This document shows, piece after piece, positions 39,521 to 58,177 of a DNA stretch of 64,000 bases. The translations under genes were made by a program, and so were the position numbers. Under the pieces are notes generated by a model. The model was not told the DNA's origin and did no database searches. It saw only the letters and a list, made by a program, of their open reading frames with translations. Positions within the stretch are counted from its first letter, which is position 1, and every line of letters begins with the position of its first letter. This DNA is from Terriglobales bacterium (GTDB lineage Bacteria > Acidobacteriota > Terriglobia > Terriglobales > Acidobacteriaceae): contig DASQHA010000244.1 of assembly GCA_035632335.1 (NCBI GenBank), forward strand, positions 16,335-80,334, in the 5' to 3' direction.

Positions 39521-39583
39521 CTCCGTTACAGAATACAGGCGGGACCTTAATATCCTCTGAACCGTCGGAAGAATTCTGTGGCC
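39521..39583 (-). repeat. 63-nt leader/promoter segment nearly identical to 48742..48804
   Basis: Hand alignment gives 57 of 63 identical positions. It contains the shared box and a GTAACGGAGG segment. Confidence 0.85.
39530..39561 (-). promoter_or_regulatory. shared box plus -10-like hexamer upstream of 36583..39489
   Basis: Minus strand reads TTCAGAGGATA TTAAGGTCCCG CCTG TATTCT. The hexamer ends 40 nt before ATG 39489. Confidence 0.6.
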
Positions 39584-39641
39584 GGGGATTGTATTTGAAC
39601 TTGAAGTGCCGCTGACCCTTACCGCTTCAAGGCATGCCTGC

Positions 39642-40667
39642 TCAGCGCTTTCCAGGCGCACGGTCAACTGGTTCGTAGATGATCATCCGTGCGACGGGCT
39701 GGCCATCCTCCTGCTGCTCTGGAGCGTAAACCCGATGAGTCGCTGTATCCACCGCAAGGCTGTGCACCATCGGCTGGACTGGGAAATCTTCAAGCTTTCG
39801 GAAGTGATCCGGATCGTCCTCCTGATACACGCCAATGACTCCGCTGGAACAAGCGGCATAAATCCGGCCGAGGCCTGGATCGAATTTGACGACGTCGGCG
39901 CCCTGAGCGAGCGGCAGGTGCGCAATGGCGCGGTGTGAATCCAAGGCGAATACAGTTAGCGTTCTGCTTCCGCCGCAAAGCAGGAATGCCCGATGATGCT
40001 CCGAATCGACGGCCATCCCGTGGTTGCCTCGACACCCTTCAACGGGATATTTACCGACCACGGTATCCGTGGCAGGGTCAATTTCCGCGACTTGGTTCAC
40101 GCTACGGAGATTAACGTAGACTTTTCGCGCGACTGAATCGTACTGCGGCATTCCGGTTTCGCTGTCGAATCTCACGGTTTTGACGATCTCGTCTTTATCC
40201 ACATCCACGATCGCGACCGCCTTACCGTTGGAATCGGAAACGTAAACTTTTCGGAACGGAGCAGCATACGCGCTCCCGTTTGGTTTTTCGGCAGTGGGCA
40301 GTCGCTTCATGACGCTCATGGAACGGAGATCCACAATGCCGATCTTGTCTTCTCCCCAGTCGGACGTATAGACCTTGCGAAGTCCGGGGACGTATTCCAG
40401 ACCCGTAATGCCCGGCACGCCAGGAATCGCCTTGACAAGCTGATTTGTTCGCACGTCGATGACATACAAGATACCGGGCCCGAGGTGCGCCGACAGCAGG
40501 TAGTGGTCCTCATCGTCCATCGTTAGATAGTCGAAACGCTGCCCTTTTGGGCCAGGAAGATCGATAACGCCAGCCTTCTTCAGCGTCTGACCAGTCAAGG
40601 GACACGCAAGCCAGAGCCAAGCGACAAGAGAGCAGCAGAAGATCTGAATCGGACGAAGATTGTTCAT
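39642..40667 (-). CDS. secreted YVTN-like beta-propeller protein (intact copy of the family disrupted at 28.3 kb)
   Basis: Signal peptide. Repeated ...YV.D......V.V.D... blades (ILYVIDVRTNQLV, KVYTSDWGEDKIGIVDLRS, KVYVSDSNGKAVAIVDVDK, KVYVNLRSVNQVAEIDPAT, RIYAACSSGVIGVYQ). Confidence 0.8.
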   Translation of the reverse strand: MNNLRPIQIFCCSLVAWLWLACPLTGQTLKKAGVIDLPGPKGQRFDYLTMDDEDHYLLSAHLGPGILYVIDVRTNQLVKAIPGVPGITGLEYVPGLRKVYTSDWGEDKIGIVDLRSMSVMKRLPTAEKPNGSAYAAPFRKVYVSDSNGKAVAIVDVDKDEIVKTVRFDSETGMPQYDSVARKVYVNLRSVNQVAEIDPATDTVVGKYPVEGCRGNHGMAVDSEHHRAFLLCGGSRTLTVFALDSHRAIAHLPLAQGADVVKFDPGLGRIYAACSSGVIGVYQEDDPDHFRKLEDFPVQPMVHSLAVDTATHRVYAPEQQEDGQPVARMIIYEPVDRAPGKR

Positions 40668-40716
40668 AGCTTTGTCCCTGAAGACCGGAACGCGCGAACC
40701 TCTCGCCTCCGTTACC

Positions 40717-40748
40717 AGGATACGCGGTTAACCTTAACATCCGCTGAA
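40717..40748 (-). promoter_or_regulatory. shared box plus -10-like hexamer upstream of 39642..40667
   Basis: Minus strand reads TTCAGCGGATG TTAAGGTTAAC CGCG TATCCT, followed by GGTAACGGAGG. Confidence 0.6.
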
Positions 40749-40904
40749 CGGCCATCGGCGACGCGACATCGCGTCCGCGGCTGGAAGGCACAAACTCAAC
40801 CAAACGACGCGGAGCTGAAGGCGTCTTGCTTTGGCGTGCACCTGCACGGACCCGGCTTGCCGGGGATCACGTCTGTTCTACCTGCACACGCTCCAGGCTG
40901 ACCG

Positions 40905-40936
40905 TTCAGTAGAAATTAAGGTTGCGGGTGTACTCT
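40905..40936 (+). promoter_or_regulatory. shared box plus -10-like hexamer upstream of 41000..41620
   Basis: Plus strand reads TTCAGTAGAAA TTAAGGTTGCG GGTG TACTCT, followed by GTAAAAAC. It is divergent from the copy at 40717-40748. Confidence 0.6.
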
Positions 40937-40999: not shown

Positions 41000-41620
41000 A
41001 TGAAGACTTTAACTGCGAGTGCTTTCGCCAGCGTCATGCTGGCCGGTGCGGCGCTCGCCGACACGGTCAACTTCGACAAGCTCAAGACTGGTGCGCCGCC
41101 GCCCGGGTGGACCGCCGGTCAGACCGGCAGCGGCGCAGCGAAGTGGTCGATCGAACGCGACGACACGGCGCCCAGCCAGCCGAACGTGCTCAAGCAATCC
41201 GGCCAGGCTACTTACGGGGTGTGTATCAAGGACGACGCCAGCATCAAGGATGGATTCGTCGAGGTGAAGTTCAAACCCATTTCCGGCACTACAGACCGGG
41301 CCGGCGGCCTGATCTGGCGCGCCAAAGATACGGATAATTACTACGTGACGCGGGCCAATGCGGTGGGAGGCAATATTTCCATCTATCACACCATCAAGGG
41401 TCAGCGAGTTGCGTTCAAGAGCATAAGTATGAACGTCGCGTCCGGCGAATGGCACACGCTGCGCGTCGATTTCCAGGGGAACCAATTCGCCGTGTCCTTC
41501 GATGGAAAGAAGGTTATTGAAGCCGCGGACGACAGCTTTGCCGACGCCGGTAAAGTGGGAGTGTTTACCAGGGCTGATAGCGTGACGCTGTTCGACGATT
41601 TCACCTATGGCGCGAAATAG
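41000..41620 (+). CDS. secreted concanavalin/LamG-fold protein (paralog 2 of 3)
   Basis: Signal peptide MKTLTASAFASVMLAGAALA. Very similar to 54201..54821 over its full length. ATG 41000 is preceded by GGAG. Confidence 0.85.
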   Translation: MKTLTASAFASVMLAGAALADTVNFDKLKTGAPPPGWTAGQTGSGAAKWSIERDDTAPSQPNVLKQSGQATYGVCIKDDASIKDGFVEVKFKPISGTTDRAGGLIWRAKDTDNYYVTRANAVGGNISIYHTIKGQRVAFKSISMNVASGEWHTLRVDFQGNQFAVSFDGKKVIEAADDSFADAGKVGVFTRADSVTLFDDFTYGAK

Positions 41621-42656
41621 CCTCAGGATCCTCGCATTGAAACACAGTCCGTTCTTGCCAGCCTTGTCGTGCTGCCTCACCGCAGTGTCGCTGCTGTCCG
41701 GCCTCGTCCCTGCACAAGAGAGCGAAGCCTCTCCGATGCGCAAAGTGCAGAGTCTCCCGCTCTCCGGTGTGCGGGGCCGCCTCGACCACTTCACAATCGA
41801 TAGGCAGCACAAGCGGATAATCTTTTCCTGCCTCGACAACAGCACTGTGCAAATCGTCGACGCGTTTGACGGCAGCCGGATTCATCAGATCCAAGGGCTT
41901 TCGCAGCCACGAGGCACGTTCTACCTTGCCGAAGGAGACAAGCTCTACGTTGCCAACGGGGCCGGCGGGCGCGTCAACGTTTACGACGGAATGAAATTCA
42001 CGCTCATCACGGCCATAGACTTCGGCAAAGACCCGGACACACTCCGCTTCGACGCCGCGGCGAAGCGCCTTTACGTCGGCTACGGCGCTGGCGCTATCGG
42101 CGTCATCGACGTCATGACGAATAAGCGGCTCGATATCGACTACAAACTCGAGGGCCATCCCGCGGATTTCCAGCTCGCGACGAAAACCCCGCAGATTTTC
42201 GTCAACGTCGCGGGCAAGAAAGACATCGCTGTTGTCGATCGCGCGACAGGCAAAGTCACAGATTGGGCGCTGCCCGCCGACCTCTCGGCGAATTCCCCGT
42301 TGGAGCTCGACGAGGTGCACCGCCGCGTGCTTATCGGCTCCCGAATGCCGTCGCACCTCATCGTCCTCAACATGGACACCCGTGCCGTCGTTGCAAACCT
42401 GCCGCTCACGGGCGACATAGATGGCATTTTCTACGACGCGGAGCGCAAGCGCGTCTACGTCGCGGGCGGCGAAGGTATCCTCAGTGTCTTCCAGCAGACC
42501 GGCGCCGACCGCTACTCAGACATGGGTAAGTATCCCAGCGCGGTCGGCGCGCGCACGGGCGTGTGGTATGCGAATCGCGACCAACTCTACATCGCCGCAC
42601 CGTCCAGCGGAACCATTGATGCGCGCCTGCTGGTGTTCGAGGCGCAGAATAACTAG
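41607..42656 (+). CDS. secreted beta-propeller protein (paralog of 53157..54164)
   Basis: Shares with 53157..54164 motifs such as GR.DH...D.....[IL]F...L.N.TV...D, RLY.ANG..G....[FY]DG..F, [PA]..FQL, VFVNV, [IL][IL]V[LF][ND][MT], D.[DI]..FYD.ER.RVYV.GG.G. Its start overlaps the LamG gene end by 14 nt. Confidence 0.8.
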   Translation: MARNSLRILALKHSPFLPALSCCLTAVSLLSGLVPAQESEASPMRKVQSLPLSGVRGRLDHFTIDRQHKRIIFSCLDNSTVQIVDAFDGSRIHQIQGLSQPRGTFYLAEGDKLYVANGAGGRVNVYDGMKFTLITAIDFGKDPDTLRFDAAAKRLYVGYGAGAIGVIDVMTNKRLDIDYKLEGHPADFQLATKTPQIFVNVAGKKDIAVVDRATGKVTDWALPADLSANSPLELDEVHRRVLIGSRMPSHLIVLNMDTRAVVANLPLTGDIDGIFYDAERKRVYVAGGEGILSVFQQTGADRYSDMGKYPSAVGARTGVWYANRDQLYIAAPSSGTIDARLLVFEAQNN

Positions 42657-42709
42657 GCCCCGCAAGAATGAGAGCTCATATTGTTTTCGCTTACAAAGGA
42701 GTGACACCC

Positions 42710-43096
42710 ATGTTGGCCCTGCTTTCCCTGAAGAACGCGTTTCTGGCTGGCGCTGTTTGTGCGACGCTGTGCGTCCTCGCGCCCGCTTCGTCGGCCGCGC
42801 CAGCGGCCTACACCTACGACATGACGCCGTACGAAACAATGGCTAAGGAATCGCTCAAGCTGGTCGCCGCCGGCGACATGAATGGGGCGTTGAAAAAGGC
42901 GCGGGAGCTGGAAGCAAAGTGGGACGCCGAAGCAACCGACCTGCGGGCGGCTGACCCGGACCTGTGGAACCTGATTGACGGGCAAATGGACGCCGCGATT
43001 GCGGCCCTGATGACGACCGACGCCAAGAAGGCTACCGAGGAGTTGAACAGCTACCTGGAAAAAGCGGCGCGTGTCCCGAAGCCGGACAAGAAGTAG
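42710..43096 (+). CDS. small secreted helical protein, unknown function
   Basis: ATG 42710 preceded by AAAGGAG. Signal peptide MLALLSLKNAFLAGAVCATLCVLAPASSA. The mature part is Ala/Lys/Glu-rich and helical-looking. Confidence 0.6.
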   Translation: MLALLSLKNAFLAGAVCATLCVLAPASSAAPAAYTYDMTPYETMAKESLKLVAAGDMNGALKKARELEAKWDAEATDLRAADPDLWNLIDGQMDAAIAALMTTDAKKATEELNSYLEKAARVPKPDKK

Positions 43097-43118: not shown

Positions 43119-45248
43119 TTACTGCACCAGCATGAGCGGCGTGCGCCAGAAAGCTACCTTCTGACCATTGGGATCGATCACATAGACCTGACAGGTGTAC
43201 TTGCCCGGCTCCAGCTTCCCCAGTGGCACGCTGAACTTCAACGGCAACGCCTTTGATTTGGGATCGAGGCCCTCGGCCACCTGGAGCGGCGCCGTTTCAA
43301 ATGCCTTCACGCTGCCGCGATAGAAGCTCACGGTCGCGACCAGGGGTTGTGTCGTCTCCGCGGTTGGTTCATACGCTTGCAGATAGACGTACATTTCCTG
43401 AGTTCTGTTGAACACGTTCGTCACACTCGGAATCAGTTTCTTTTGGTCCTCGATTAAGGGGTTGGCGGCGTCCAGCTTCTTGTCTTTTTGAGCGTTGAAC
43501 AGCGCGGCGGTCATGTCCATCCGCTGGCTGCTCAACACAACCGAACTGATGGGTAGTACGGTTGTCTGGCTCGTAAGATCGGGAATCACGAACGCCCTCT
43601 CATAGGTCCCGATCTTTCCCGTTTCGTTGTCACGGGCGAGGAACTTGATGCGATACTTTCCGGGCGGAAGAGTAAAGCCTGTATCGTATTCCAGCGGACG
43701 CTTGGCCAATTGCCCCGCCAGCTCACCCTTTAATTTGACATCGATGATATCGCGCACGTTGCCTTTGGTCACACCACGGTCGTCTTTGATCTCACCGATG
43801 AAATCGATCTTCGTACTCTCAGCGCCGCCGTGCAGGGCGAGTTCGAGTTCGCTTCCAGGAATCTTAACCGATATAGGAACGAAATACCGGTCGCGCGCCA
43901 GCCGGAAGTAATCGATCTCCATGGCGATATCGATATCCGTAACCGGGTCTCCCAACATCAACGCCTGCTGGAGCTGCCGTTCCCTGTCGGCGGACGTGAA
44001 CTTGCTGAACTCCTTTCCAGCGTAGTAGCCGCGGCGATAGTCCAGGCCTTTCCCTACCAATGCCATCAAGGGGCCGTTCAGTGAGATCTTAATGCTGCGG
44101 AACTGGCCATCCAGTTTGTCGTTGGTGGGGTAGTATCCGAGGATGTAGTAACTGGAAATCGCCTGCTGTGCCTGCACGATTCCCGTCGCAAGCTCGCCGT
44201 TGTCGAGGAGAGCCTTGCCCCCAGTATCCGCAGCCAGGGTATAGAGAGTCTCCTGCTGTGCCTGGAAGTTGCTTGTCGCCGACCGCGCTGAACTACCGGT
44301 ATACATCCCCTGGCCGCCTGGGGATCCTTTGGTAGCATCCCCGAGGGGAGCGGTCGCAACCAAGCCCCGCGCGTCGATCGGATAAAACGACACGTTAGCA
44401 CGGATAGCCGCGTTGATGGTGGCCTGAAGTTGCGACTGGTTGTCCGTACCGCTTTGTTGCATGCCGCTGGTGAAATACACCAGCGCCTTCTTTTCCTGAA
44501 GAGTCCCTAACATCTTGACCGCCGTTTCGAGAGCCGACAACTGGCGATTGGTATTAAAAATGTTGAACTCCGAATCGTCCTGCTGGAACGCGGCGCCGGC
44601 ATCGGACGCGCTGTCATCGGCGGTGGTGACCCCAAAGCCTTGTCCCTCGCCAATCACCAAGCCCTTAATATCCTTGGACAATTGGTCGCGATCGTCAGTG
44701 AAGTCCTCCACGACCTGGAGGTCCGTGGAGAACTTCATGATCGCCATCAGATCGGATTTGGTCATCTGCGTTGTCAGGAACTTCAGTGCCGCGGCCCGAG
44801 CCCGAAGCTGGTCCCCGATCGGCATGGAGGTCAGGTCAAAGAACATGACGAGGAGACGGCGATCTCGATATTTGATATCGCCGGGTTTCTCCGAAGCGAT
44901 CTGAACGGCGGTCAGGGATTTGACCGGAGCCTCTCGTTTGTCCACCGGTTTCAGTGGTTCCGAAGGCTTAGGCCCTGTCTCGGCTTGCGGAGCCGCGGTT
45001 TCGTCCAGTTTCTGGAATTCGATGAAGCTGATCTTTTGGGGCTTGCCGTCTTCAGTCAGATTGAAATCCTTGGCCGTCAGCCCTTCGATGGGATTGCCGT
45101 TCTTATCCTTGACGATGACGTTTTCGACCACCAGGTTGGACGTGACCTTGAACGTGGGGATCTGCGCCGGCGACTGCGGAGATGCCTGTTGTGCGGCGCC
45201 GGACAACATCCAGATGAGAAGTGCTGCCGCAATGGGTCGCATAGTCAT
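43119..45248 (-). CDS. VWA-domain protein of the acidobacterial VWFA-related type
   Basis: Signal peptide. N-terminal FKVTSNLVVENVIVKDKNGNPIEGLTAKDFNLTEDGKPQKISFIEF resembles the VWFA-related acidobacterial domain as I remember it (TIGR03436). It is followed by a VWA-like core (LLVMFFDLTSM...). Confidence 0.75.
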   Translation of the reverse strand: MTMRPIAAALLIWMLSGAAQQASPQSPAQIPTFKVTSNLVVENVIVKDKNGNPIEGLTAKDFNLTEDGKPQKISFIEFQKLDETAAPQAETGPKPSEPLKPVDKREAPVKSLTAVQIASEKPGDIKYRDRRLLVMFFDLTSMPIGDQLRARAAALKFLTTQMTKSDLMAIMKFSTDLQVVEDFTDDRDQLSKDIKGLVIGEGQGFGVTTADDSASDAGAAFQQDDSEFNIFNTNRQLSALETAVKMLGTLQEKKALVYFTSGMQQSGTDNQSQLQATINAAIRANVSFYPIDARGLVATAPLGDATKGSPGGQGMYTGSSARSATSNFQAQQETLYTLAADTGGKALLDNGELATGIVQAQQAISSYYILGYYPTNDKLDGQFRSIKISLNGPLMALVGKGLDYRRGYYAGKEFSKFTSADRERQLQQALMLGDPVTDIDIAMEIDYFRLARDRYFVPISVKIPGSELELALHGGAESTKIDFIGEIKDDRGVTKGNVRDIIDVKLKGELAGQLAKRPLEYDTGFTLPPGKYRIKFLARDNETGKIGTYERAFVIPDLTSQTTVLPISSVVLSSQRMDMTAALFNAQKDKKLDAANPLIEDQKKLIPSVTNVFNRTQEMYVYLQAYEPTAETTQPLVATVSFYRGSVKAFETAPLQVAEGLDPKSKALPLKFSVPLGKLEPGKYTCQVYVIDPNGQKVAFWRTPLMLVQ

Positions 45249-45250
45249 AG

Positions 45251-48200
45251 TCAGAATTGAAACCTCAGATTGGCTTGCAGGACGCGCATGCCGTTTGCGT
45301 TATTGGGTAATCCGAATTGAGTGCTTCCGATTGTTGTATCCCAATTAGGGAAAGTCACATGGTTGAGCACATTGGTAGCTTGCACACTGATATCGCAGTC
45401 GCGACGCTCCCCGAACTGGAAGTTGCGTTGCACCGAGGCGTTCACATTCAACTGGCCTGGGCCCATAATGATGTTTCGGCCGGCATTTCCCCATTGGCCC
45501 GGCGGCGGGGCGATAAAGGCGGCTGGGTTGAGGTGCAACCCTGATCCGGGAACAACCGCATAAATGGAGGCCCCGGTCAGATTCGGGCGTTCGCTTCCGG
45601 TGACGCCGGTACCTTTCACTGTGAGGGGCAGGATGGGGGTCAGGGGTGCGCCGCTGGCCACCGTGAGGTCGGAGGTAATGGTCCAACCTCTGACGAGGGC
45701 CCCCTTCTTTCCCTTCATCAGCGCCAAGCCTCCCGTTCCCACTTCGTCGCTGAATTGCATACGCACATTCAGAGTCTGGTTGCGGACGCCGCTGGTAGGT
45801 CCCCGCTCGGCCGACAAGTCCAGCCAGTTCTGCGCCACCACGCTCCCCAGAGCATCGTCGAAGGCCTTCGCGAAAATGTAGCTGACGTTGCCGGAAAAGC
45901 CTCCGCGCGCGCGCCGCTGCAACTGCAAGATCGCAGAGTTATAGGTGTTATTGCCGTTTGAAGTTTCGTAGGTATAGCCAGCCGGACCACTCAGCGCGCC
46001 GGTATATCCGCTCGGCACCGAATTCGGCAGGAATTGCTGGGGAAGCCGCGTGCCCTTGGAACCGGAGTACGTGGCGGTCCCCACCAGCGCCCATGCCAGG
46101 CTCTGCTGAACGGAAGCCTGCCAGTTCTGCGAGTAGCCCACGCGGAAGTTCGGGTCGATGGCAAAGGTGTTGGTAGCAGTATTCGCGGGAAGCAGGAGGC
46201 CGGAACCTAGCGTCAACAAGTTGCCAGGCGAACTGGACAAGCGGGCGCTGGTGGAAATCGGCGATTGCTGCGCCATCTGGTTAGCAATGCTCGTGTAGAC
46301 CGAGCTGTTGTAGTAGACGCCGTATCCGGCACGCAGCACCGTGGACCTCTTGGCGAAAGGCCGGTACGCAATGCCGAGACGCGGCGCGAAAGCATGCTTG
46401 TCCGGGCTGACCAGTGAGCTGGGCAGATTCGCCTGGGCAGCGGAGGTGCACCCAGCGACGTACGCGCCACAAACCGGGGCGATCGCCGAGAACCCCGGCG
46501 CGATATTCAGATTCACCAGCCGGCCATACAACTCGGTAATCGGCGCGCCGTATTCCCAGCGAAGGCCCGAGGTGATGGACAGCGCGGGTGTCACTCGCCA
46601 ATCATCGTTGATGAAGGCGTCATACCAGGACGTCCGGAAGTATTTATCGGCATTTCCGAATGCGATCGCGACGGTATCCGCGTAGCCAAGGAAGAAATCG
46701 GCAAAGTCGTGGCCGGTTCCAACCACGCCCACCCCGTTCACAACCTGCTGTGTGGCTGTGCCGTTGAATGTGAACTGCCCGCGGGCATTCTGTTGCAAAA
46801 GAGGATTGATCTGGAGCCGCCGGAAATCTCCGCCGAACGTGAGTTGATGCGGCCCGTGCGACCAGGTCAAACTCTCGCCTACCGCACTCGTCTGATTGCG
46901 ATTGAGCGCCTCTTGCCCGTCGGAAAGACCAGCGAAGCCATTCGAAAAGGACAGACTGGGAGGTCCCCAGTTCAGCGGGTCCCCGCTCGTGCCAGCGATC
47001 CCAGCCTGCTGCGCCACGTTCGCGCGGTTCGCGAAGTACGGCGTCGCCAGGGTCGAGGAACGGCTCCACGTATATCGCACGCTGCTGAAGAGCAGCGGCG
47101 TAATGCGATAGGTCCACGTGACGTCCGCGTTGATCCCCGTCATGGAATTGGCGTCTTGGAAGTTGAAAACGCTCTGACTGGTCCCGTTGCTGCGCTGATA
47201 GCCGAGTGCGCCGCTCAACTGGTTCTTGGGATTGATCCTGACGTTGCTGATTCGCAGGTTTACATTGTCCTGGTTCGTCGTGCCCACCAGCGGCGTCTGG
47301 TAATTGAAACGGTTGTTCGCGTTAAAGTTCGGCAACGGATAAAAGTTCAATAGGCTGGCAGCCTGAGGGCTGATCCGGCTCGGAGGAATGACATTGTTCG
47401 GGAACGGATTCCCGCTGAGCGGATCAAAGATCTGCACTGGCTTCCCTCGCGAGTCCACCGTCTGCGAGAAATCTCCCATGCGCTCGGCCGCAGTGGGCAT
47501 TAGGGCGGAACTGGTGCTTCCGTTTCGGGTTCGAGCCAACTGATAGGTGACGGTGAATGCCGGAGCATTCGTGAACTTCAGCAAGCGCGGAATTCTGATG
47601 GGGCCGCCAACCGTGACCGACATGCGAGATTTGGCATAGGCCGCTTTGGGGGTGTCCTGACCCGTGAGGGAATAACTGCGCGCATCAAGCGCTGAGTTGT
47701 CCAAGAAGGATGAGAAGTTGCCGGTGTATTGTGGCCGGGAACTGCGGCGTCCGTTGCCAAACGACGCCTGGGTATTCCCTCGTCCTCCCGGACCGCCACC
47801 GCCGCGGCCGCCCTGGCCGCCACCGCCCGGACCACCACCGCGGCCGCCTTGCCCGCCACCGGGACCGAATCCACCGCCGCCGCGGCCACCGCCACCACCA
47901 CGGCCCCCACCATCGCCAGGTCCGCCCCCCGGTCCGCCGACGTCACCGAGGCTGGTGATACCCAATGCGCCTGGAATGCCTCCATCTCCGCCGCGGCCGC
48001 CACCGCCGCCGAAGCCCCAATCATTCTGGTGGGGCACACCAAGTCCGCTGCTCACGCTGCCATTGACCACGACCGCATCGGCGCTCTGAGTAATGTCGCC
48101 GGCAGAAATGCTGGCACCGCCTATCCCGACGGCCGACAGATCGCCAGACTGGTTCACATTTGCGAGCTGGAATCCGCCACCTCGAGCGGCCTGTCCTATG

Positions 48201-48741: not shown

Positions 48742-48804
48742 CTCCGTTACAGAATACACGCGCGACCTTAATATCCTCTGAACCGTAAGCAGAACTCTGT
48801 GGCC
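48742..48804 (-). repeat. 63-nt leader/promoter segment nearly identical to 39521..39583
   Basis: 57 of 63 positions identical by hand alignment. Confidence 0.85.
48751..48782 (-). promoter_or_regulatory. shared box plus -10-like hexamer upstream of 45251..48730
   Basis: Minus strand reads TTCAGAGGATA TTAAGGTCGCG CGTG TATTCT. The hexamer ends 20 nt before GTG 48730, with GGAGG between them. Confidence 0.6.
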
Positions 48805-50745: not shown

Positions 50746-50778
50746 CTCACCACTGAGCTGATGCTCCCCCCTGTTGCT

Positions 50779-51963
50779 TCACTTGCCCGGCGCCACGACG
50801 AAGATGCCCTTCCCGGCAACTGGAACGAAGATGTGTCTGTTTTTCGCATTAACGGCAACCGAGTGGCTCCCGAGGGGAATGTTGACAACGAACTTTTCAG
50901 TACTGCCGTTAACCACGGCCACCCCTCCGTTTGCCGAGGAACGCGAGAAGTAGTAGTTATTGGACCCCGGATCGTACCAGACTTCGTCTGCGTCGGCCCC
51001 TTGGGGCACGGTCTTTAAAATCTTCCCGGTTTTAGGATCGATAGACACGCCGCCCACGCTGCCACACACGGTCATTAGACGCCCGTTCGGCCCAACCGTG
51101 AGGCCGCTAACGGTAAGGCCGAGCAATCCTCCGGTACACTCCACCGGGAAGCTCCTGACCGGATTCGGGAGCTTGTGGGGATCGAACACATCGATACGAT
51201 TCTTCTTCCCAGGAACGTTCTGGTAAAACAACCCGGTCTGGCGAACCCAAACGGGTTGTTCCATGCCATCCTGTTCCGCCGGATAAACGTAGTGGCCCAA
51301 CACGGCCCCATCGATAACGGAGATGAAAGTGATGAGCGGCGGTGAATCACCATCATTCTCAGTTAGCAGAATCCGATTGATCGGATCATAAGCCATTTCA
51401 TCGACCCGTCCCTTCCCGCCGGTTGGGATCGACCGAATGATGGCAGTGCCCGGTTTCGCTGCGTCGGCTTCAATGATGTTGCCATCACCGTCTCCAGCCC
51501 ATACGTGGCCGAGGTTATCGGTGACGACTCCATTTGGCCCAGCGCAGTGGCGCAGCTCTCTGGGTTGGCCAGGGCAAGGTCTGCTCCCGGTGTAGTGACC
51601 GCGTCCGATGAACCCTAGGAACGTATCGGTGGCGGAATCAACCAAGTCGATGGCGTTGTTCGCACGGTCGGCGAGGTAGTACCTTTGCGTGGAGTTGTCG
51701 TTCCAACTGACATCGAAGGCGCCGAGATTGGTAGGCGAACCCTTGACCAGAACCGGTGCAGTAAACATCTGCCCGGATTCACGTGGCGCGGGGGTGGATT
51801 GGGCGGACTTGGTTGACCGCGGGGTTTGGCCCGATGACGATGGTGCACCTCCAACGGCGGCCAGCAATGCCGAGCAGACGATGGAGCAGATCCTGATTCG
51901 TATGGTCGTCATGGTTACGAGCGTTTTCGTGACAGACTTTCTGGCTTGCATTACAGGAGGCAC
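50779..51963 (-). CDS. secreted beta-propeller-like protein; start uncertain (GTG 51963, ATG 51951 or ATG 51912)
   Basis: Signal-like MTTIRIRICSIVCSALLAAVGG. Repeated blade-like segments (YYLADRANNAIDLVD, VWAGDGDGNIIEAD, NRILLTENDGD, NYYFSRSSANGGVAVVN, HIFVPVAGKGIFVV). Confidence 0.7.
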   Translation of the reverse strand: MPPVMQARKSVTKTLVTMTTIRIRICSIVCSALLAAVGGAPSSSGQTPRSTKSAQSTPAPRESGQMFTAPVLVKGSPTNLGAFDVSWNDNSTQRYYLADRANNAIDLVDSATDTFLGFIGRGHYTGSRPCPGQPRELRHCAGPNGVVTDNLGHVWAGDGDGNIIEADAAKPGTAIIRSIPTGGKGRVDEMAYDPINRILLTENDGDSPPLITFISVIDGAVLGHYVYPAEQDGMEQPVWVRQTGLFYQNVPGKKNRIDVFDPHKLPNPVRSFPVECTGGLLGLTVSGLTVGPNGRLMTVCGSVGGVSIDPKTGKILKTVPQGADADEVWYDPGSNNYYFSRSSANGGVAVVNGSTEKFVVNIPLGSHSVAVNAKNRHIFVPVAGKGIFVVAPGK

Positions 51964-51983: not shown

Positions 51984-52015
51984 AGGATACGCGGCCAACC
52001 TTAATATCCGCTGAA
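51984..52015 (-). promoter_or_regulatory. shared box plus -10-like hexamer upstream of 50779..51963
   Basis: Minus strand reads TTCAGCGGATA TTAAGGTTGGC CGCG TATCCT. Confidence 0.6.
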
Positions 52016-52046: not shown

Positions 52047-53114
52047 TTATGGGTTGCCGATGTCCAGAGTCCAGGACCCGAGCGACATCTCCTGTGTGCC
52101 AGGACGCCTCAGAATCGGTTCCACACCGGTCATCAGTGTGATCGCCGTGACGCGGTCCGCGATCGAACCCACTGTGCTCGATATGACGATCGCATCACCA
52201 GCCTTCAGATCCGTGAGCGCGATGCTCGGACTGCTCTCCAACATCTGCTGCAAGTCATCGCCGCGCGGTCCGCCTCCTTGCGCGGACGCCCCGCGGCCTT
52301 TCCCAGTCCCTTCCGTGCTCCCGTGAACTCGCTGGGCTATGGCTTGCGCAACTTGGGGCTGGAGCTTCCGCAAACTTGAATCTCCACTTACCTTCACCAC
52401 CAGCGCCTTCTTGGTATCGAGGTCGTTAATCCGTAGTTCATTCTGTTGCGGATTGAGCGAGAGGATGACACCGGCGATAGTGCGGAAACTTCCGGACACG
52501 ACTTCCTCGGCTATCATCCTGCTTCCGTCGCCAGTGCGGTTTCCGCGCGCCCGGACTTGATCTCCGGTCTTGATCTCACCCAGTGTAGACGGGCGAGCAT
52601 CCACGAACCGAACGGAATCGGGCGCGTAGCGTCTCACGTTGGCGTTCGACGCGAGCGTGATCGCTACAGAGGTAACACTCCCCGAAGTGCGCACGTTGAT
52701 TACGACCTGGTCGGCGCCCGCCATTGTGACCAAACCCACGACGCCGCGGCGATCCCAGTCTGCGCGGTCGGCCGCCTGCTGCTGGGCAATATCCCCCTGA
52801 GACATGACCACAACGAGCGTGGCTGCGACAGCGTTGCCATTCGCCCCGGCGCTCCCACGGGCCAGCACGCGATCACCCACGGAAATATCATTGAGTGTTA
52901 TTGTGGCGGCTTTCTGGAGGTCGGTTTCCCTCGGGGCAACTCGGCGGAAACTGGCTGAAGGCTGGGCGGTCACCACCAGCTCGGTCCCGGTATCTGTCAT
53001 GAGTGTGATCCGGCGGCCGCCGAGATCCACATTAGTGACCGCACCCAGCACGCGGTCCGTTTGCGCGAAAACCGGGACGATAAGAACAAAGGCGAGACAA
53101 CAAGCGAGCTTCAT
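52047..53114 (-). CDS. secreted repeat protein, unknown function
   Basis: Signal peptide MKLACCLAFVLIVPVFA. Three to four internally similar segments of the form G.V..V......I.[LV]........V......R........[LI]..I..GD.V.ARG. Gly-rich loop (GTGKGRGASAQGGGPRG). Confidence 0.65.
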   Translation of the reverse strand: MKLACCLAFVLIVPVFAQTDRVLGAVTNVDLGGRRITLMTDTGTELVVTAQPSASFRRVAPRETDLQKAATITLNDISVGDRVLARGSAGANGNAVAATLVVVMSQGDIAQQQAADRADWDRRGVVGLVTMAGADQVVINVRTSGSVTSVAITLASNANVRRYAPDSVRFVDARPSTLGEIKTGDQVRARGNRTGDGSRMIAEEVVSGSFRTIAGVILSLNPQQNELRINDLDTKKALVVKVSGDSSLRKLQPQVAQAIAQRVHGSTEGTGKGRGASAQGGGPRGDDLQQMLESSPSIALTDLKAGDAIVISSTVGSIADRVTAITLMTGVEPILRRPGTQEMSLGSWTLDIGNP

Positions 53115-53156
53115 TAGATCCTCCCTAGTATCAGGCGAGCGTTGCCCTTGTGCTCC

Positions 53157-54164
53157 TCATTTTGTCTCGTACACGAGGATTTCGGAAGGCTGCTCGCCCC
53201 GGTGTGGTACGGCGGCGAAGAGTTTCCCCAATTCTGGTACGAAGAGTCCGGTTCGGGTGCCCGGTGGGGTAGGATAGCGCGCGATCCTGTCGTAATGATC
53301 GGTGTCTTTCTGCTGCAAGACATCGATGAAGCCTTGACCTCCGATCACGTAGACCCGGCTTCTTTCGGAGTCGTAAAAGAGGTCGTCCGTATCGCCAATA
53401 ATTTCGGGGGATGCTACTGTCTGGCCACTCTCTGTGTCGAAGACCAGCAAACGCGCTGGCATGCGGCATCCGCTAAATAGCCGATGATGAGCCTCATCGA
53501 GCGCCATCGGGAAACACGTCTTCGCGGTGGTAGTGGGCCAACGGGCGAGGATCGTTCCCTTCACAAAGTCCGCGACTTGGACTTCTTGCTTATCGGGGAC
53601 ATTCACGAAAACGCGAGTCCCCGTCTTCTCAAGCTGGAACGATTCGGGGTGAGCATCCACGACAATCTCCCGGATCAGCTTCCCGCTGGAATCCAGAATC
53701 CCTAGCGCCCCGGCTCCCTGTGTCCGTCCCCTCAGCCCCTTTTCCCCGCCATATCCGACGGCCACGCCGCGGCTCCGGGCGTCGTAGCGAATATTATCGG
53801 CGTCGTCTGAGAACTTAACCGTATCGAGGAGCTGAAAGGTCGCACCATCGAAGATTCGCGTGGAGCCGTCAACACCGTTGGCGGCATACAGGCGATTGGT
53901 CGAAGCATCGTAGAACAATCCTTGCGGCTCCGCCAAACCCGGCAGCGTCCGGACCCGCTGGCCGGATTGCAGGTCGATCACTTCGACAGTGTTGTTGCCC
54001 AGGGCGGACACGAAGAGACGCTGGCCTTTGATGTCCACGCTGAGGTGATCCATCCGTCCATCGACGTTGGGCAGCGCGATGCGCGTTTTCAGCGACAAAG
54101 CCGAGGTCTCTTGCCCGGCGGCCAAACTGCTCAAGAGTAGAAGTGTTGCGATGCAGTATTTCAT
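53157..54164 (-). CDS. secreted beta-propeller protein (paralog of 41607..42656)
   Basis: Signal peptide MKYCIATLLLLSSLAAG. Collinear similarity with 41607..42656 along the whole length. Confidence 0.8.
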   Translation of the reverse strand: MKYCIATLLLLSSLAAGQETSALSLKTRIALPNVDGRMDHLSVDIKGQRLFVSALGNNTVEVIDLQSGQRVRTLPGLAEPQGLFYDASTNRLYAANGVDGSTRIFDGATFQLLDTVKFSDDADNIRYDARSRGVAVGYGGEKGLRGRTQGAGALGILDSSGKLIREIVVDAHPESFQLEKTGTRVFVNVPDKQEVQVADFVKGTILARWPTTTAKTCFPMALDEAHHRLFSGCRMPARLLVFDTESGQTVASPEIIGDTDDLFYDSERSRVYVIGGQGFIDVLQQKDTDHYDRIARYPTPPGTRTGLFVPELGKLFAAVPHRGEQPSEILVYETK

Positions 54165-54200
54165 TTGACCTCGTCCTCACTCTCACTATTGCGGGCGCTC

Positions 54201-54821
54201 CTACTTTGCGCCGTAGGCGAAGTCATCGAACAACGTCACGCTGTCGGCCTTGGTCCAGACACCGACTTTTCCCGCGTCCTTGAACTTCTCGTCGTCCCAT
54301 TCAATAGCTTTCTTACCGTCGAATGTCACCGTGAAGTGACTGCCCTGGAAATCGACCCTCAAAGTGTGCCACTCGCCAGTGGCCACTTTCATGTTCGTCC
54401 GCTTCCTTTCAGTGCGCCGCGCGTTGACGGTGTCGTAAATGGTGACATTGTCTTCGAGCGCATTGGCGCGAGCGACGTAGTAATTGTTCGAATCCTTGGC
54501 CCGCCAGATGACACCACCCGCCTGGTCCGTCTTGCCGGAGATTGGCTTAAACTTCACTTCGACAAAACCGTCCTTAAGGCTGCTGTCGTCCTTGATGCAA
54601 ACCGGATAGGTGGCCTCACCGGATTGCTTTAAAACGTTTGGCTTGCTAGGTGCCGTAGGGTCGCTCTCGATTGTCCACTTCGCGTCGCCGGTGCCGGTTT
54701 TGGTGCCGGTCCAGTTGGGCGGCAACGCGCCGGTTTTGAGGTTGTCGAAATTCACGGTTTGGGCCAGCGCTGCGCTGGCCAGTATCGTGGTAGCGAGTAT
54801 CACTACTGCTCGTGTTCTCAT
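54201..54821 (-). CDS. secreted concanavalin/LamG-fold protein (paralog 3 of 3)
   Basis: Signal peptide. QTVNFDNLKTGALPPNWTGTKTGTGDAKWTIESDPTAPSKPNVLKQSGEATYPVCIKDD... is nearly collinear with 41000..41620. ATG preceded by GAGGAG. Confidence 0.85.
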   Translation of the reverse strand: MRTRAVVILATTILASAALAQTVNFDNLKTGALPPNWTGTKTGTGDAKWTIESDPTAPSKPNVLKQSGEATYPVCIKDDSSLKDGFVEVKFKPISGKTDQAGGVIWRAKDSNNYYVARANALEDNVTIYDTVNARRTERKRTNMKVATGEWHTLRVDFQGSHFTVTFDGKKAIEWDDEKFKDAGKVGVWTKADSVTLFDDFAYGAK

Positions 54822-54877
54822 TGGGGTCTCCTCTGTCTGCCTTTCTTTTCATGCGGTGCATCGTGAGTTGTGCCGGT

Positions 54878-55894
54878 TCACTCCCGGTCCAGAAACACCG
54901 CGGCGCTGTGGGTCCGCGGCTGGAAAGCATAGATCTTGTTTCGCGCGGCGTCGAACGCAATCGTGTTCGCGCCTTTCTCGGTCGGCACGGTCTGAATAAG
55001 TTCTAACGCGTCAACTTCGAAGACGTCGATGACGCCTGGATCGCCGACGGCGGCGTAGAGATGACGGCGGGCGGCGTTGAGGAAAAGCACGTCCGGCCCG
55101 CCGCTCAATTCCAGCGTGCGCTGCACTTCACCGGTGTCCGCCGAGAGCACGATAAGTTTCTTCGCATCGCAAGCGCAGAACAGCCGCCGTGTCTTCGAAT
55201 CGAGCGCAAGCCCGTGAGGTCCCGCCGCTGGGACTTTGTAAGTGCGTGCGATTTCACCCGGCTGGTTTGACTTGATGCCTACAATGACGGGCGGGTCGGA
55301 TATATTCACGAAGAACATTTCCTGTTGCGGGTCGAAAACGGCCCAGCGCGTCCGGCCCGGCACTGTGATGGTGCTCAGCGCCGTTCGCTTCGCCGCGTCG
55401 ACGATGATCACGGTCGCAGGGTTACCGCCGTGTGCAACCAGCAGCAGATTGCGTTTGGGGTCATGGGCCAGTCCGTTGGGGCTCGCGCCAACCGGGACTT
55501 TCACGAGCGCGCCCTCATCGTTGAACGGGAAGATCCCGACCGTGTTTTCTCCCCGATTGGAGGTGAACACCAAGTTCGCTTCGGGAGTCACCAGCGCGCC
55601 GGCGACGCCCTTGAGGTTCGGAATCGAATGAAGAAAACGATCGTTTGCGCCATCAATGACGTCCAAGGAATCGTTCGCAGTGTGGGCAACGAAAATTCGG
55701 CCCGTGGCCGGATGTATGTCCGCGTGATCGAATCCGCCGGGGCCTATGTGCGCAGGCAACTCGATCTGGCCGTGCAGCTGTAGAGGCCCTTTCGGCTGGC
55801 TGAGCGCCGGCACGCCTAGGAAACTCATCATCACCATCACGACGGCAAGCGCCTCCACTATTCTGCGTTTCCTGCTGCTGAGTTCTGTGTTCAT
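54878..55894 (-). CDS. secreted YVTN-like beta-propeller protein
   Basis: Signal or anchor segment. Blades such as RIFVAHTANDSLDVIDGA, LVFTSNRGENTVGIF, LLLVAHGGNPATVIIVD, MFFVNISDPPVIVGI, RLFCACDAKKLIVLS, HLYAAVGDPGVIDVFEV, KIYAFQP. The ATG overlaps the kinase stop (ATGA). Confidence 0.8.
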   Translation of the reverse strand: MNTELSSRKRRIVEALAVVMVMMSFLGVPALSQPKGPLQLHGQIELPAHIGPGGFDHADIHPATGRIFVAHTANDSLDVIDGANDRFLHSIPNLKGVAGALVTPEANLVFTSNRGENTVGIFPFNDEGALVKVPVGASPNGLAHDPKRNLLLVAHGGNPATVIIVDAAKRTALSTITVPGRTRWAVFDPQQEMFFVNISDPPVIVGIKSNQPGEIARTYKVPAAGPHGLALDSKTRRLFCACDAKKLIVLSADTGEVQRTLELSGGPDVLFLNAARRHLYAAVGDPGVIDVFEVDALELIQTVPTEKGANTIAFDAARNKIYAFQPRTHSAAVFLDRE

Positions 55895-57321
55895 GTCGGC
55901 ACACTTGTCCTAATCGAATTCAATGGAATGCTCACTCGAAATACAGATCCTTGTCCAGGTGCGCTCTCCACCTGGATGTTAGCGCCGTGGGCCTCGGCGA
56001 TCCATTGCGCGATGGAGAGCCCTAACCCAACGCCGCCCATGTCCCGCGAACGCACCTTATCGGCACGATAGAAGCGCTCGAAGATGTTCGGCAGATCCTC
56101 GGCTGCGATGCCGATACCAGTGTCTCTGACTTCGACGATGCCGAATCCATCTACTTGGTGCATCCCGACCGACACGCGGCCGCCCGAAGGCGTGTACTTG
56201 AGAGCATTGTCGATCAGAATCAGAAACAACTGGCGAAGTGCATTCGGGTCTCCCTTGATGTTCATCGGCTGTTCCGGGACCTGCCAGTCGAATGCAACGT
56301 TTCGAGGCCCGGCCAGTGTCGAACCTTGGGAGCAGGATTCCTTGACCGCCGTGCCGAGATCCATGTCCGAAACTTGTAGCGTCGCAGCCCCTGAATCCGC
56401 GCGAGCGAGCGTCATCAGATCGTCGAGCAACACGCTGGTGCGCTCAGATTCGGCGAGGACTCCGCGCAGGACCTCTTCATACTCGGGAGCCGTGCGGCTC
56501 TTTTGCAGTGCTACTTCCGTGGTCGTCCGGACGAGCGCCACAGGCGTTCGCAACTCGTGCGATGCGTCGGCAGTGAACCGGACGATTTTCTTATAGGCGG
56601 CGTCCAACCGCTTAAACGCGGTATCGAGCCGCGCCATCATGTCGTTCAAAGTTTCGGAGAGCCTCTGCAACTCATCGCCTGTCTCCGGAACCGCCAACCG
56701 CTGTGATAGATTGTGCCCGCTGATCGAGCGCGCGGTATTTGTAATCTGGTCAACAGGGGCGAGCGCGCGCCGACTCATCCAGTAACCGCTCACCGTAGCG
56801 ACGATCAGCACCGCAGGCACGGACCATAGGATCAGCCACCCGAAGCGATGCAGCACGCCGTAAAATCCGCCCAGCGGAGTGGCCAACTGCACTATGTATT
56901 GTTGACCATCGGCTTGAACCCTCGCCGTGAGGATTCGTAGCGGACTACTGGCAACATCGATCGTCTTGAGCTCCGCGCGGTTCGTTTGCGGGCTGCCTAC
57001 CGGTATGTTGTACGGACGAATCGAACCCGACTGAAAGATCCAGTTTCCACGCGCATCGCTGATCTGCAGGAGATCGCCTCCAGGCTTCATCCCTGAGTGT
57101 TCGCGAAACTCATACCGAACGTCCTCCACCGTACTTCCGGGGAACACTCGCTGGACAAATCGTTGGACGCCGTTGAAACGAACCGCGAGCTCATCATCCA
57201 CCGCAGTGTGAACACTTTGCCGCATGACCAGAAACATCCCCGCGCCGAACGATGAAAGCGCTATGGTGAGGATCATGAAATACCAGGCTGTGAGCCGGAC
57301 GCGAATGGACGCGATCTTCAT
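55891..57321 (-). CDS. sensor histidine kinase, heavy-metal-sensor-like architecture
   Basis: SIRVRLTAWYF N-terminus, two TM segments flanking an about 130-aa periplasmic loop, HAMP, H-box ADASHELRTPVALV, DTGIGIAAEDLPNIFERFYRAD, GGVGLGLSIA. Confidence 0.9.
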   Translation of the reverse strand: MKIASIRVRLTAWYFMILTIALSSFGAGMFLVMRQSVHTAVDDELAVRFNGVQRFVQRVFPGSTVEDVRYEFREHSGMKPGGDLLQISDARGNWIFQSGSIRPYNIPVGSPQTNRAELKTIDVASSPLRILTARVQADGQQYIVQLATPLGGFYGVLHRFGWLILWSVPAVLIVATVSGYWMSRRALAPVDQITNTARSISGHNLSQRLAVPETGDELQRLSETLNDMMARLDTAFKRLDAAYKKIVRFTADASHELRTPVALVRTTTEVALQKSRTAPEYEEVLRGVLAESERTSVLLDDLMTLARADSGAATLQVSDMDLGTAVKESCSQGSTLAGPRNVAFDWQVPEQPMNIKGDPNALRQLFLILIDNALKYTPSGGRVSVGMHQVDGFGIVEVRDTGIGIAAEDLPNIFERFYRADKVRSRDMGGVGLGLSIAQWIAEAHGANIQVESAPGQGSVFRVSIPLNSIRTSVPT

Positions 57322-57995
57322 GCCTCGCCCTCATGCAAGCGGTACCCGAAGCCGCGCACAGTGTGAATCAGCTTGACGTTGTAGCCGTCGTCCACCTTGT
57401 TCCGCAAATGCTTGATGAAGACGTCCAGCGTATTGTTTTCGACCTCTTCATGGGTGCCCCAGACAGTGTTGATGATGGTTTCACGTCGCAGGACGCGTCC
57501 CGCGTTGCGCAACAGTAACTCAAGGAGTAGGTACTCTTTTCTGGTAAGGGAAATTCGCTCGTCCCCACGGTAGACCTCGTGTGTGGATGGGTCGAGCACC
57601 AGATCGGCCGTCTTCAGCTTAGATGATCGCAAAGCAGACGCTCGGCGGGAAATGGCGTGTAATCGGGCCACGAACTCGACAAAGGAGAATGGCTTGGTCA
57701 GGTAATCGTCGGCACCGAGATTCAATGCCTTAACAAGGTCCGCCTCCCCGTCGCGAGCGGTCAGGATCAGGATGGGTATACCGTCGTCAGCCTTTCGGAG
57801 CCGCCGCGCGACCTCGAAGCCATCAAGACCGGGCAGCATGATGTCCAGCACCATCGCCTCGAAGCTGAGTGTCTCCGCCAGTGCGAGACCTTCTGTGCCC
57901 GTGTGGGCGAGAGTCACCGAATGACCCTGCTCCTCCAGACCTTTCTTGAGGACGTCGGCCATCTTCCTTTCGTCTTCGACGATCAGCACGCGCAC
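57318..57995 (-). CDS. OmpR-family response regulator
   Basis: Receiver plus winged-helix domain (LTRKEYLLLELLLRN...TVRGFGYRL). GTG start 57995. ATGA overlap with the kinase gene. Confidence 0.95.
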   Translation of the reverse strand: MRVLIVEDERKMADVLKKGLEEQGHSVTLAHTGTEGLALAETLSFEAMVLDIMLPGLDGFEVARRLRKADDGIPILILTARDGEADLVKALNLGADDYLTKPFSFVEFVARLHAISRRASALRSSKLKTADLVLDPSTHEVYRGDERISLTRKEYLLLELLLRNAGRVLRRETIINTVWGTHEEVENNTLDVFIKHLRNKVDDGYNVKLIHTVRGFGYRLHEGEA

Positions 57996-58021
57996 TGTGA
58001 AACCCCAGGGCTCCTGGCAAG

Positions 58022-58054
58022 ATCATAGCGTGCGGAACCTTAAGATCAACTGAA
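58022..58054 (-). promoter_or_regulatory. shared box plus -10 hexamer upstream of the response-regulator gene (candidate autoregulation site)
   Basis: Minus strand reads TTCAGTTGATC TTAAGGTTCCG CACGC TATGAT. The hexamer ends 26 nt before GTG 57995. Confidence 0.6.
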
Positions 58055-58120
58055 TGATCGCAGCGCGGGCCGGGGTTTCGGTGCGACCAGCTTCCTGAAG
58101 CGATAGCGCAACGCCCGGGT

Positions 58121-58177
58121 TTCTGACAACAGCGTCAGGGAAACGTCAGAGAATCTTAAGGGAAAGCACACTACTCT
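58121..58177 (+). promoter_or_regulatory. four phased GTCAG/TTAAG repeats plus -10-like hexamer, oriented away from the regulator gene
   Basis: Plus strand reads CTGACAACAGC GTCAGGGAAAC GTCAGAGAATC TTAAGGGAAAG CACAC TACTCT. The last two repeats plus the hexamer fit the shared-box geometry. Confidence 0.5.

Follow-up and report, generated by a model that had tools for sequence, protein, structure and literature searches.

A candidate OmpR/PhoB-type operator shared by seven promoters of an acidobacterial gene island

Seven copies of one element tile a 22-kb island

We analyzed a 64-kb stretch of DNA (the window) from an uncultured soil-metagenome acidobacterium, the metagenome-assembled genome "Terriglobales bacterium"; the same contig is present in Logan SRR6788486, and a search for an extension of it gave only a 17.7-kb Logan contig that lies inside the window. 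An island of 22 kb within the window (36583-58496) carries seven copies of a promoter-proximal element (the box), which is composed of two half-sites, TTCAG and TTAAGG, and a downstream hexamer, TAnnnT. The island also encodes an OmpR-family response regulator (RR1) and its sensor kinase, whose operon is preceded by one of the copies. The seven promoters tile the island: they cover every one of its genes (16 recognizable genes plus an unsupported open reading frame [ORF] of 90 amino acids [aa]), no unrelated gene lies between them, and the shortest gap from a stop codon to the next box is 31 nt. The copies and the two regulatory genes are as follows.

Copy 1, 39530..39561, minus strand: TTCAG AGGATA TTAAGG N9 TATTCT; the ATG of a 968-aa barrel lies 40 nt downstream
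Copy 2, 40717..40748, minus strand: TTCAG CGGATG TTAAGG N9 TATCCT; propeller bp341 starts 49 nt further on
Copy 3, 40905..40936, plus strand: TTCAG TAGAAA TTAAGG N9 TACTCT; the ATG of a LamG protein (206 aa), at 41000, lies 63 nt downstream
Copy 4, 48751..48782, minus strand: TTCAG AGGATA TTAAGG N9 TATTCT; followed after 20 nt by the GTG of a 1159-aa barrel; a paralogue of copy 1, flanks included
Copy 5, 51984..52015, minus strand: TTCAG CGGATA TTAAGG N9 TATCCT; p394 starts 20-32 nt further on; similar to copy 2
Copy 6, promoter of the regulator operon, 58022..58054, minus strand: TTCAG TTGATC TTAAGG N10 TATGAT; a GTG lies 26 nt on
Copy 7, 58134..58177, plus strand: GTCAG GGAAAC GTCAG AGAATC TTAAGG N10 TACTCT; divergent from copy 6
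RR1, 57318..57995, minus strand: OmpR-family response regulator (Response_reg and Trans_reg_C domains), the proposed binder
Sensor kinase cognate to RR1, 55891..57321, minus strand: HAMP, HisKA, and HATPase domains; its gene overlaps the regulator gene by 4 nt

The box is enriched, intergenic, and fixed in geometry

A search of the window with TTCAGNNNNNNTTAAGG (that is, TTCAG-N6-TTAAGG), allowing at most one mismatch, returned seven matches where 0.58 were expected (standard deviation 0.87; maximum of three over 100 dinucleotide-preserving shuffles). They lie at 39561, 40748, 48782, 52015, and 58054 on the minus strand and at 40905 and 58145 on the plus strand, exactly reproducing the coordinates of the seven copies listed in a first-pass annotation of this DNA. 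The hexamer follows TTAAGG after 9 nt in five of the seven copies and after 10 nt in the other two. Under a stricter search of the whole window, which allowed up to two substitutions in the 17-mer and required the TAnnnT hexamer, we recovered the seven copies plus a site at 29911 on the minus strand, and nothing else.

All seven copies are intergenic, with a chance probability of ∼3e-7 given the coding fraction of 0.88 in a crude gene set of the window. The sole overlap with an ORF, between copy 3 (40905) and a TTG-extended ORF starting at 40922, vanishes once the real ATG at 41000 is used. Every copy is oriented toward the next gene, with the hexamer 20-63 nt before the start codon. The first-pass annotation had described the copies as intergenic and facing a gene; within the window, all seven strong copies are noncoding and correctly oriented.

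The two half-sites form a direct repeat with an 11-bp period, and copy 7 has a third, upstream half-site in phase with them at 58134. A scan for sigma-70 promoter elements found a −35 element in a single promoter, the regulator's own (58054, minus strand), and none in the remaining six. The layout that had been proposed, two half-sites in 11-nt phase abutting a −10-like hexamer with no −35 element, is thus present in all seven copies as far as geometry goes and in six of them with respect to the missing −35. In copy 6, the TTGATC between the half-sites is also a weak −35 element of the sigma-70 type, spaced 16 nt from TATGAT (58022-58049), an arrangement that recurs in the two loci with the closest regulator homologues (L134 and L135, below). 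By analogy with autoregulated systems, a −35 element at the regulator's own promoter alone fits basal expression of the sensor system, with targets that would depend on the activator; this is the design expected for autoregulation. A direct repeat with a third half-site in phase is likewise what a head-to-tail dimer of winged-helix proteins would be expected to read.

We also considered whether the box might function as transcribed RNA or be a small mobile repeat and not protein-binding DNA, as its repetition and its sharp consensus over 32-45 nt might suggest. Rfam returned no match, either in a scan of the whole window or in a permissive scan of 58100-58950, and neither terminal inverted repeats nor target duplications are present. 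Orientation is strict and the distance to the start codon short in every copy. Since the RNAalifold consensus of the seven copies has zero pairs, we dropped the RNA reading, and we give the idea as a whole next to no credence.

The seven units encode mostly exported proteins

Genes downstream from the seven copies were grouped into the following units.

Unit of copy 1, 33991..39489, minus strand: two barrel genes (968 and 857 aa) separated by 18 nt
Unit of copy 2, 39642..40667, minus strand: YVTN/YncE-like propeller bp341
Unit of copy 3, 41000..43096, plus strand: LamG/DUF1080 protein (206 aa), propeller bp349, and a 142-aa exported ORF
Unit of copy 4, 43119..48730, minus strand: 1159-aa CarboxypepD_reg + OMP_b-brl_4 barrel and a 709-aa acidobact_VWFA protein
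Unit of copy 5, 48844..51963, minus strand: p394 (weakly propeller-like) and a 633-aa ankyrin + squalene-cyclase-like protein
Unit of copy 6, genes following the regulator and kinase, 52047..55894, minus strand: propeller bp338, LamG206, propeller bp335, and p355
Unit of copy 7, downstream from 58145, plus strand: the unsupported 90-aa ORF only

Apart from the regulator, the kinase, and the 90-aa ORF, all island products were predicted to begin with a signal peptide. The exported classes are YVTN-type propellers, DUF1080/LamG proteins, TonB-receptor-like giant barrels of the CarboxypepD_reg + OMP_b-brl_4 kind, acidobact_VWFA, and the ankyrin (Ank) + squalene-cyclase-like fusion, and domain annotation agrees with the first-pass description of the downstream genes as signal-peptide proteins of the propeller, LamG, barrel, VWA, and ankyrin-fusion kinds. 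The four genes that follow the kinase (bp338, LamG206, bp335, and p355) are spaced from a 4-nt overlap to a 56-nt gap, and all four have a signal peptide. Pfam and NCBIfam annotation of the island genes revealed no metal efflux pump, multicopper oxidase, metallochaperone, phosphate-acquisition, or lipopolysaccharide (LPS)-modification genes. Sequence searches of the PDB matched the propellers to generic YVTN/YncE/WD40 entries only, and found no match for p355 or the LamG proteins.

Some features of the gene content lie beside this pattern. A cassette of a LamG/DUF1080 protein (206 aa) followed by a YVTN propeller is present twice, at 41000-42656 on the plus strand and at 53157-54821 on the minus strand; between the two, the LamG proteins are 68% identical and the propellers 35% identical. 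A third LamG paralogue (6431-7096) stands alone. The interval 58178-58918, beyond copy 7, spans 740 bp with a G+C content of 53% (vs. 58%) and holds only the 90-aa ORF and one of 60 aa; neither has a Pfam or Rfam match (the latter in the permissive scan of 58100-58950) or a homologue in the loci that we fetched.

Downstream from the two barrels of unit 1, the region 30067-34082 (minus strand) encodes an extracytoplasmic function (ECF) sigma factor, a rhodanese-domain protein, a CHRD-domain protein, and a cytochrome-c-fused pyrroloquinoline quinone (PQQ) dehydrogenase. Transcription of unit 1 may read on into the ECF sigma gene (33312-34082), and the genes of 30067-34082 as a whole may be read from the promoter of copy 1 by such read-through.

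The box accompanies the regulator in related genomes

We turned to public assemblies and collected, from metagenomic relatives, the loci of RR1's closest homologues (n = 11; 61%-88% identity). A box of the form TTCA[G/C]-N6-TT[C/A]AGG-N9-10-TAnnnT was found just upstream of the regulator operon in nine of the 11. The loci, in order of regulator identity to RR1, are as follows.

L134, 88% identical: TTCAGTTGATCTTAAGG-N9-TATGAT
L135, 77% identical: TTCAGTTGATCTTCAGG-N10-TATGAT
L136, 74% identical: TTCAC-N6-TTCAGG-N9-TATACT, located before the bp335 orthologue that precedes the regulator
L139, 71% identical: box in the same format
L047, 70% identical: box in the same format
L052/L053, 64% identical: box in the same format, with half-site order TTAAGG-N5-TTCAGG
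L140, 63% identical: box in the same format
L141, 61% identical: box in the same format

The first-pass annotation had placed one copy on the promoter of the OmpR-family regulator at 57318..57995, and this placement holds both for the copy itself (58054, minus strand) and for the orthologous operons of these nine loci. Orthologues of the propeller, p355, p394, and barrel genes adjoin the system in the relatives' loci, and the box stands before neighboring targets as well: p394 (L135), a propeller (L053), barrels (L052, L053, and L141), and a 391-aa protein (L140).

Upstream of most of the relatives' regulators the box reads TTCAG-N6-TTCAGG. The order of the half-sites is swapped or homogenized between organisms, which suggests that they are equivalent versions of a single sequence, TT[C/A]AG(G). 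In a comparison of 23 sites, the half-site and hexamer columns are nearly invariant and the spacers free except for A-T at positions 9-10; the hexamer follows after 9 nt at 17 sites and after 10 nt at six. With a matrix built from the 15 foreign sites only, the top seven of ∼128,000 window positions were six window copies and the site at 29911.

These comparisons bear on two further explanations. The first is that the shared 32 nt reflect recent common descent of cassettes that were duplicated with their promoters, with no common regulator. Copies 39561 and 48782 have common flanks, copies 40748 and 52015 are near-identical, and the targets belong to paralogous families; moreover, GTAACGGAGG follows the hexamer in several copies and not in other organisms. 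However, the paralogous target proteins are 22%-35% identical (68% for one LamG pair) and their boxes nearly identical, the spacers diverge while the half-sites and hexamer stay fixed, the box is kept with regulators 61%-88% identical, and the foreign-site matrix recovers the window copies. We consider descent without a regulator very improbable. As to the trailing sequence itself, GTAACGGAGG lies directly 3′ of the hexamer in three copies (39520-39529, 40706-40716, and 48741-48750, all on the minus strand) and GAAATGAGG takes this place at copy 52015; GTAACGGAGG acts as a Shine-Dalgarno sequence at copy 48782 only and, given its absence from other organisms, is probably a trace of promoter duplication.

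The second explanation is that the element is a promoter of an alternative or ECF sigma factor, such as that encoded by 33312-34082, with TTAAGG or TTCAG serving as the −35 and a downstream element as the −10. In its favor, unit 1 is followed on its own strand by an ECF sigma gene, no sigma-70 −35 is present in six copies, and GTAACGG is found 16-17 nt after TTAAGG in some copies. Against this, GTAACGG is not kept in other organisms, the TAnnnT hexamer is sigma-70-like, no box lies directly before the sigma gene itself, and most orthologue loci with a box have no ECF gene within 10 kb. Interchangeable half-sites with an 11-bp period, and a third in phase, moreover bear the mark of a tandem winged-helix dimer rather than that of sigma region 4. 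A sigma factor promoter therefore strikes us as a distant prospect, and the operator reading is the one that we carry forward.

Beyond the orthologue loci, a strict pattern scan of 185,579 GTDB species genomes (a set from which the source species is apparently absent) gave 45 matches, roughly the number estimated for chance, and no genome had multiple matches. The matches that look real are those in Bryobacteraceae L016 and L042 only, with one in Granulicella (L021) being possible. These two sites lie 6-7 nt before a CarboxypepD_reg barrel (L016) and a probable exported protein with a signal-peptide-like N-terminus (L042). As a side observation, the start codon follows the hexamer by just 6-8 nt at L016 (3786-3817), L042 (1539-1570), and L139 (2700-2732); if the hexamer is a −10 element, these transcripts would have little or no leader. 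Finally, a metagenome scan with the RR1 protein gave, among the matches listed, regulators at most 57% identical to it; the 754 kb around them, used as a control, contained eight matrix matches, all in loci with regulators of 47%-57% identity, and three of the eight adjoin the regulator gene, which suggests that TTCAG-type specificity may be older than the island.

The regulator, its kinase, and a paralogous system

The best-scoring curated families are those of heavy-metal two-component systems: TIGR01387 (cztR_silR_copR) for RR1, at 243 bits against a cut-off of 279.2, and TIGR01386 (cztS_silS_copS) for the kinase, at 268.9 bits against 292.55; both scores are below the cut-off, although the kinase aligns over its full length, periplasmic part included. 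The kinase has two transmembrane segments and a periplasmic domain of ∼125 aa. In the PDB, the DNA-binding domain of RR1 is nearest to those of CovR, DrrD, and PcoR, and several RR1 homologues carry the JGI label "MprA." Assignments of RR1 as a PmrA equivalog (NF007928; 169.7 bits, cut-off 330) or a PhoB equivalog (TIGR02154; 198.2 bits, cut-off 296.2) were rejected, as were OmpR and CusR, for which scores fell far below the cut-offs.

The window encodes one more system of this kind.

Second CusRS-like two-component system, 25740-27874, minus strand: its regulator (27191-27874) is 48% identical to RR1

The paralogous regulator is the obvious candidate for a different reading, in which the element is a real operator-promoter that is bound by another regulator (this paralogue or an unlinked factor) and its link to RR1 is positional only. 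Upstream of the paralogue (27920-27936) lies GTCAGGAAAACGTAAG, of the form GTCAG-N6-GTAAGG, which differs at two of 16 positions from GTCAGGGAAACGTCAG at 58134-58149; copies 7 and 8 (the latter being the site at 29911) begin with GTCAG and not TTCAG; and our choice of orthologue loci by way of the regulator gene biases co-occurrence. On the other hand, the box sits on the promoter of a 57318-type regulator in nine of 11 orthologue loci, the recognition helices differ (LDNVIDVNIARLR in the paralogue vs. ENNTLDVFIKHLR in RR1), and the paralogue's own site has another geometry, with 22 nt to the nearest TATAAA. Together these make a different binder unlikely in our view, though less so than the explanations discussed above, and RR1 is the regulator that we retain. 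The likeness of GTCAGGAAAACGTAAG and GTCAGGGAAACGTCAG nevertheless hints that the second system might cross-regulate the divergent promoter beside RR1.

An eighth promoter, its gene disrupted by an insertion sequence

Two weaker sites had been reported in addition to the seven copies. They are listed here with the mobile element adjacent to the first.

Copy 8 (relic), 29880..29911, minus strand: GTCAG GCAATA TTCAGG N9 TATTGT; before a bp341 paralogue interrupted by an insertion sequence
IS630-family element, 28645..29843, plus strand: 31-nt terminal inverted repeats; 36 nt downstream from copy 8
Doubtful copy, 6305..6336, plus strand: TTCAG GTAGTC CTAAGA N9 AACAAT; upstream of the LamG paralogue with probable start 6431

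The site at 29911 has canonical geometry and ranked seventh in the window with the foreign-site matrix. The transposase of the IS630 element consists of two overlapping ORFs, a helix-turn-helix ORF (28703-29299) and a DDE_3 ORF (29215-29820). With 1201 bp excised in silico, the ATG at 29873 is joined to an ORF that has a signal peptide and shares 75% identity with the propeller at 39642-40667. The insertion is in the 5′ end of the gene, and only 142 codons of this bp341-like propeller gene are left after excision. Since excision restores a paralogue of another proposed target, 29911 is a genuine eighth promoter, the gene of which has been destroyed by the insertion sequence.

The site at 6305 scored 10 bits and ranked fourteenth with the same matrix. 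Similar scores are also found in coding sequence and on the ribosome-binding site of a GMC oxidoreductase at 6141, and 6305 is not distinguishable from chance. The LamG protein behind it is 40% identical to two island genes, and the site may be a decayed copy. Of the two weak copies in the first-pass annotation, then, 29911 stood on its geometry, rank, and restored target, and 6305 fell to the noise level. The accompanying count of at least nine transcription units is overstated: seven are solid, the eighth is a relic, and the ninth is doubtful. The neighboring GMC oxidoreductase (3758-6141, minus strand) has a C-terminal DUF1080 domain, and its true start is the ATG at 6126, preceded by GGAG at 7 nt, and not the TTG at 6277.

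A proposed mechanism and the points against it

Taken together, the results make it probable, from sequence comparisons, that the element is an autoregulated operator of the OmpR/PhoB type that replaces the −35 element, with RR1 as the predicted binder that activates its own operon and six further units. The element would be a composite of promoter and operator. Its TT[C/A]AG(G) half-sites, one helical turn (11 bp) apart, would stand where a −35 is otherwise found, and a sigma-70-type −10 hexamer, TAnnnT, would follow them after 9-10 bp. Phosphorylated RR1 would bind both half-sites as a head-to-tail dimer and recruit RNA polymerase in the manner of PhoB and PmrA. RR1 would in this way switch on its own operon and six neighboring units, with an eighth unit lost to the insertion sequence. 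Within this proposal, we infer binding by RR1, activation as opposed to repression, and a −10 role for the TAnnnT hexamer. Transcription would presumably start ∼7 nt after the hexamer, which would place the box at approximately −38 to −22.

Several points weigh against the proposal. The two duplicated promoter pairs (39561/48782 and 40748/52015) leave about five independent copies within the genome, the remainder being duplicated promoters, and the motif scan of the source genome spans the 64-kb window, within which the candidate regulon forms a single contiguous island. Orthologue loci were sampled via the regulator gene, and the co-occurrence of box and regulator is partly built in. No box was found, even at three mismatches, in L048 and L050, in which the regulator is 67%-69% identical and the gene context is different. 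In some relatives, a GGAG-like stretch directly after the hexamer is a poor fit to a transcription start 7 nt downstream. Copy 7 has no credible cargo gene: only the 90-aa ORF follows it, with no homologue in any fetched locus and no Pfam or Rfam match. Lastly, judging by its upstream site, the paralogous regulator could share the boxes or compete for them.

Biological role of the candidate regulon

PQQ-dependent dehydrogenases flank the island (30067-32256 and 60764-62835), another lies near the regulator homologue in L048, and the PDB annotation of YncE-type propellers reads "PQQ-dependent catabolism-associated." A link of the regulon to periplasmic oxidation or metal supply is at most a lead. 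The dehydrogenase at 60764-62835 (minus strand) is itself split into an N-terminal half (61732-62835) and a C-terminal half (60764-61975) in overlapping ORFs, and represents a frameshifted pseudogene or else an error of assembly.

Few bacteria are as abundant in soil as the Acidobacteria. To our knowledge, both their transcriptional regulation and their expanded families of giant outer-membrane barrels, VWA proteins, and secreted propellers are almost wholly uncharacterized. We tentatively suggest, as a possibility that we would not yet favor over others, that the box, together with its CusRS-like system, marks out an envelope regulon that is specific to this lineage and conserved across uncultured Terriglobia/Bryobacteraceae. 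Such a regulon might coordinate massively expanded and functionally unassigned acidobacterial families (CarboxypepD_reg giant barrels, acidobact_VWFA, YVTN propellers, and DUF1080 lectin-like proteins), perhaps in response to a metal or to a signal associated with periplasmic oxidation by PQQ-dependent enzymes, and a second, paralogous system might act through hybrid GTCAG/TTCAG operators.

The first-pass annotation knew of no described regulon of such composition, and our literature search also found no such operator or regulon for Acidobacteria. The operator and its candidate regulon are new; the mechanistic kind is well known, and nothing in the mechanism goes beyond the OmpR/PhoB paradigm. 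A sharp operator, a named candidate regulator, and a compact island with eight promoters provide a directly testable handle on acidobacterial envelope biology, and the operator yields a matrix with which to search related genomes for co-regulated genes.

Comparison with known systems

We compared the box with operators of described two-component systems. MprA of Corynebacterium glutamicum is an OmpR-family, positively autoregulated regulator for which an electrophoretic mobility shift assay (EMSA) and MEME motif, TKTTAAGAAM, has been reported, with variants TGTTAAGAAA and TTTTCAGCAA (PMC12113857). A TT[A/C]AG core is common to this motif and the island box. However, MprA is actinobacterial, its motif is a single loose 10-mer, and its targets are sigE, htrA, and cell-wall genes. 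A literature search for the sequence of an M. tuberculosis MprA box found nothing, and that box was not used. A likeness to CusRS/CopRS/CzcRS comes from the proteins, with TIGR01387 and TIGR01386 as the best-scoring (sub-cut-off) families for RR1 and its kinase. There are, however, no metal efflux or detoxification genes among the island genes, and the described CusR/CopR boxes have a different sequence from the island box.

The closest parallels are those in layout. The pmra-box consists of two TTAA-type hexamers (CTTAAT/CCTAAG) in direct repeat, 5 nt apart, that replace the sigma-70 −35 element and are bound by a dimer of the OmpR/PhoB family, as seen by cryo-EM of PmrA, and PhoB is positioned at −41 to −25 (PMC10570014). 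As with PmrA/BasR of Salmonella, Klebsiella, and E. coli, the island box has two hexamers 5 nt apart in place of the −35, its downstream half-site (nTTAAG) fits the pmra-box hexamer, and its predicted position of −38 to −22 would be within 1-2 bp of that deduced for the pmra-box from PMC10570014. It differs in its upstream half-site, which is TTCAG here, and in relatives both half-sites are often TTCAG. The targets differ as well: those of the pmra-box are LPS-modification genes (pbgP/arn, ugd, and pmrC), whereas the box described here precedes genes for exported propellers, LamG proteins, and barrels in an acidobacterium. With the pho box it has in common tandem direct repeats with an 11-bp period over the −35 region, promoters without a −35 element, and an autoregulated two-component system. 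The pho box half-site is of the TGTCA type, whereas that of the island is TT[C/A]AG, and the island has no phosphate-acquisition genes. Given the sub-cut-off family scores and an island free of metal, phosphate, and LPS genes, we file the box as a candidate operator that would work in the manner of PhoB and PmrA while standing outside any named regulon.

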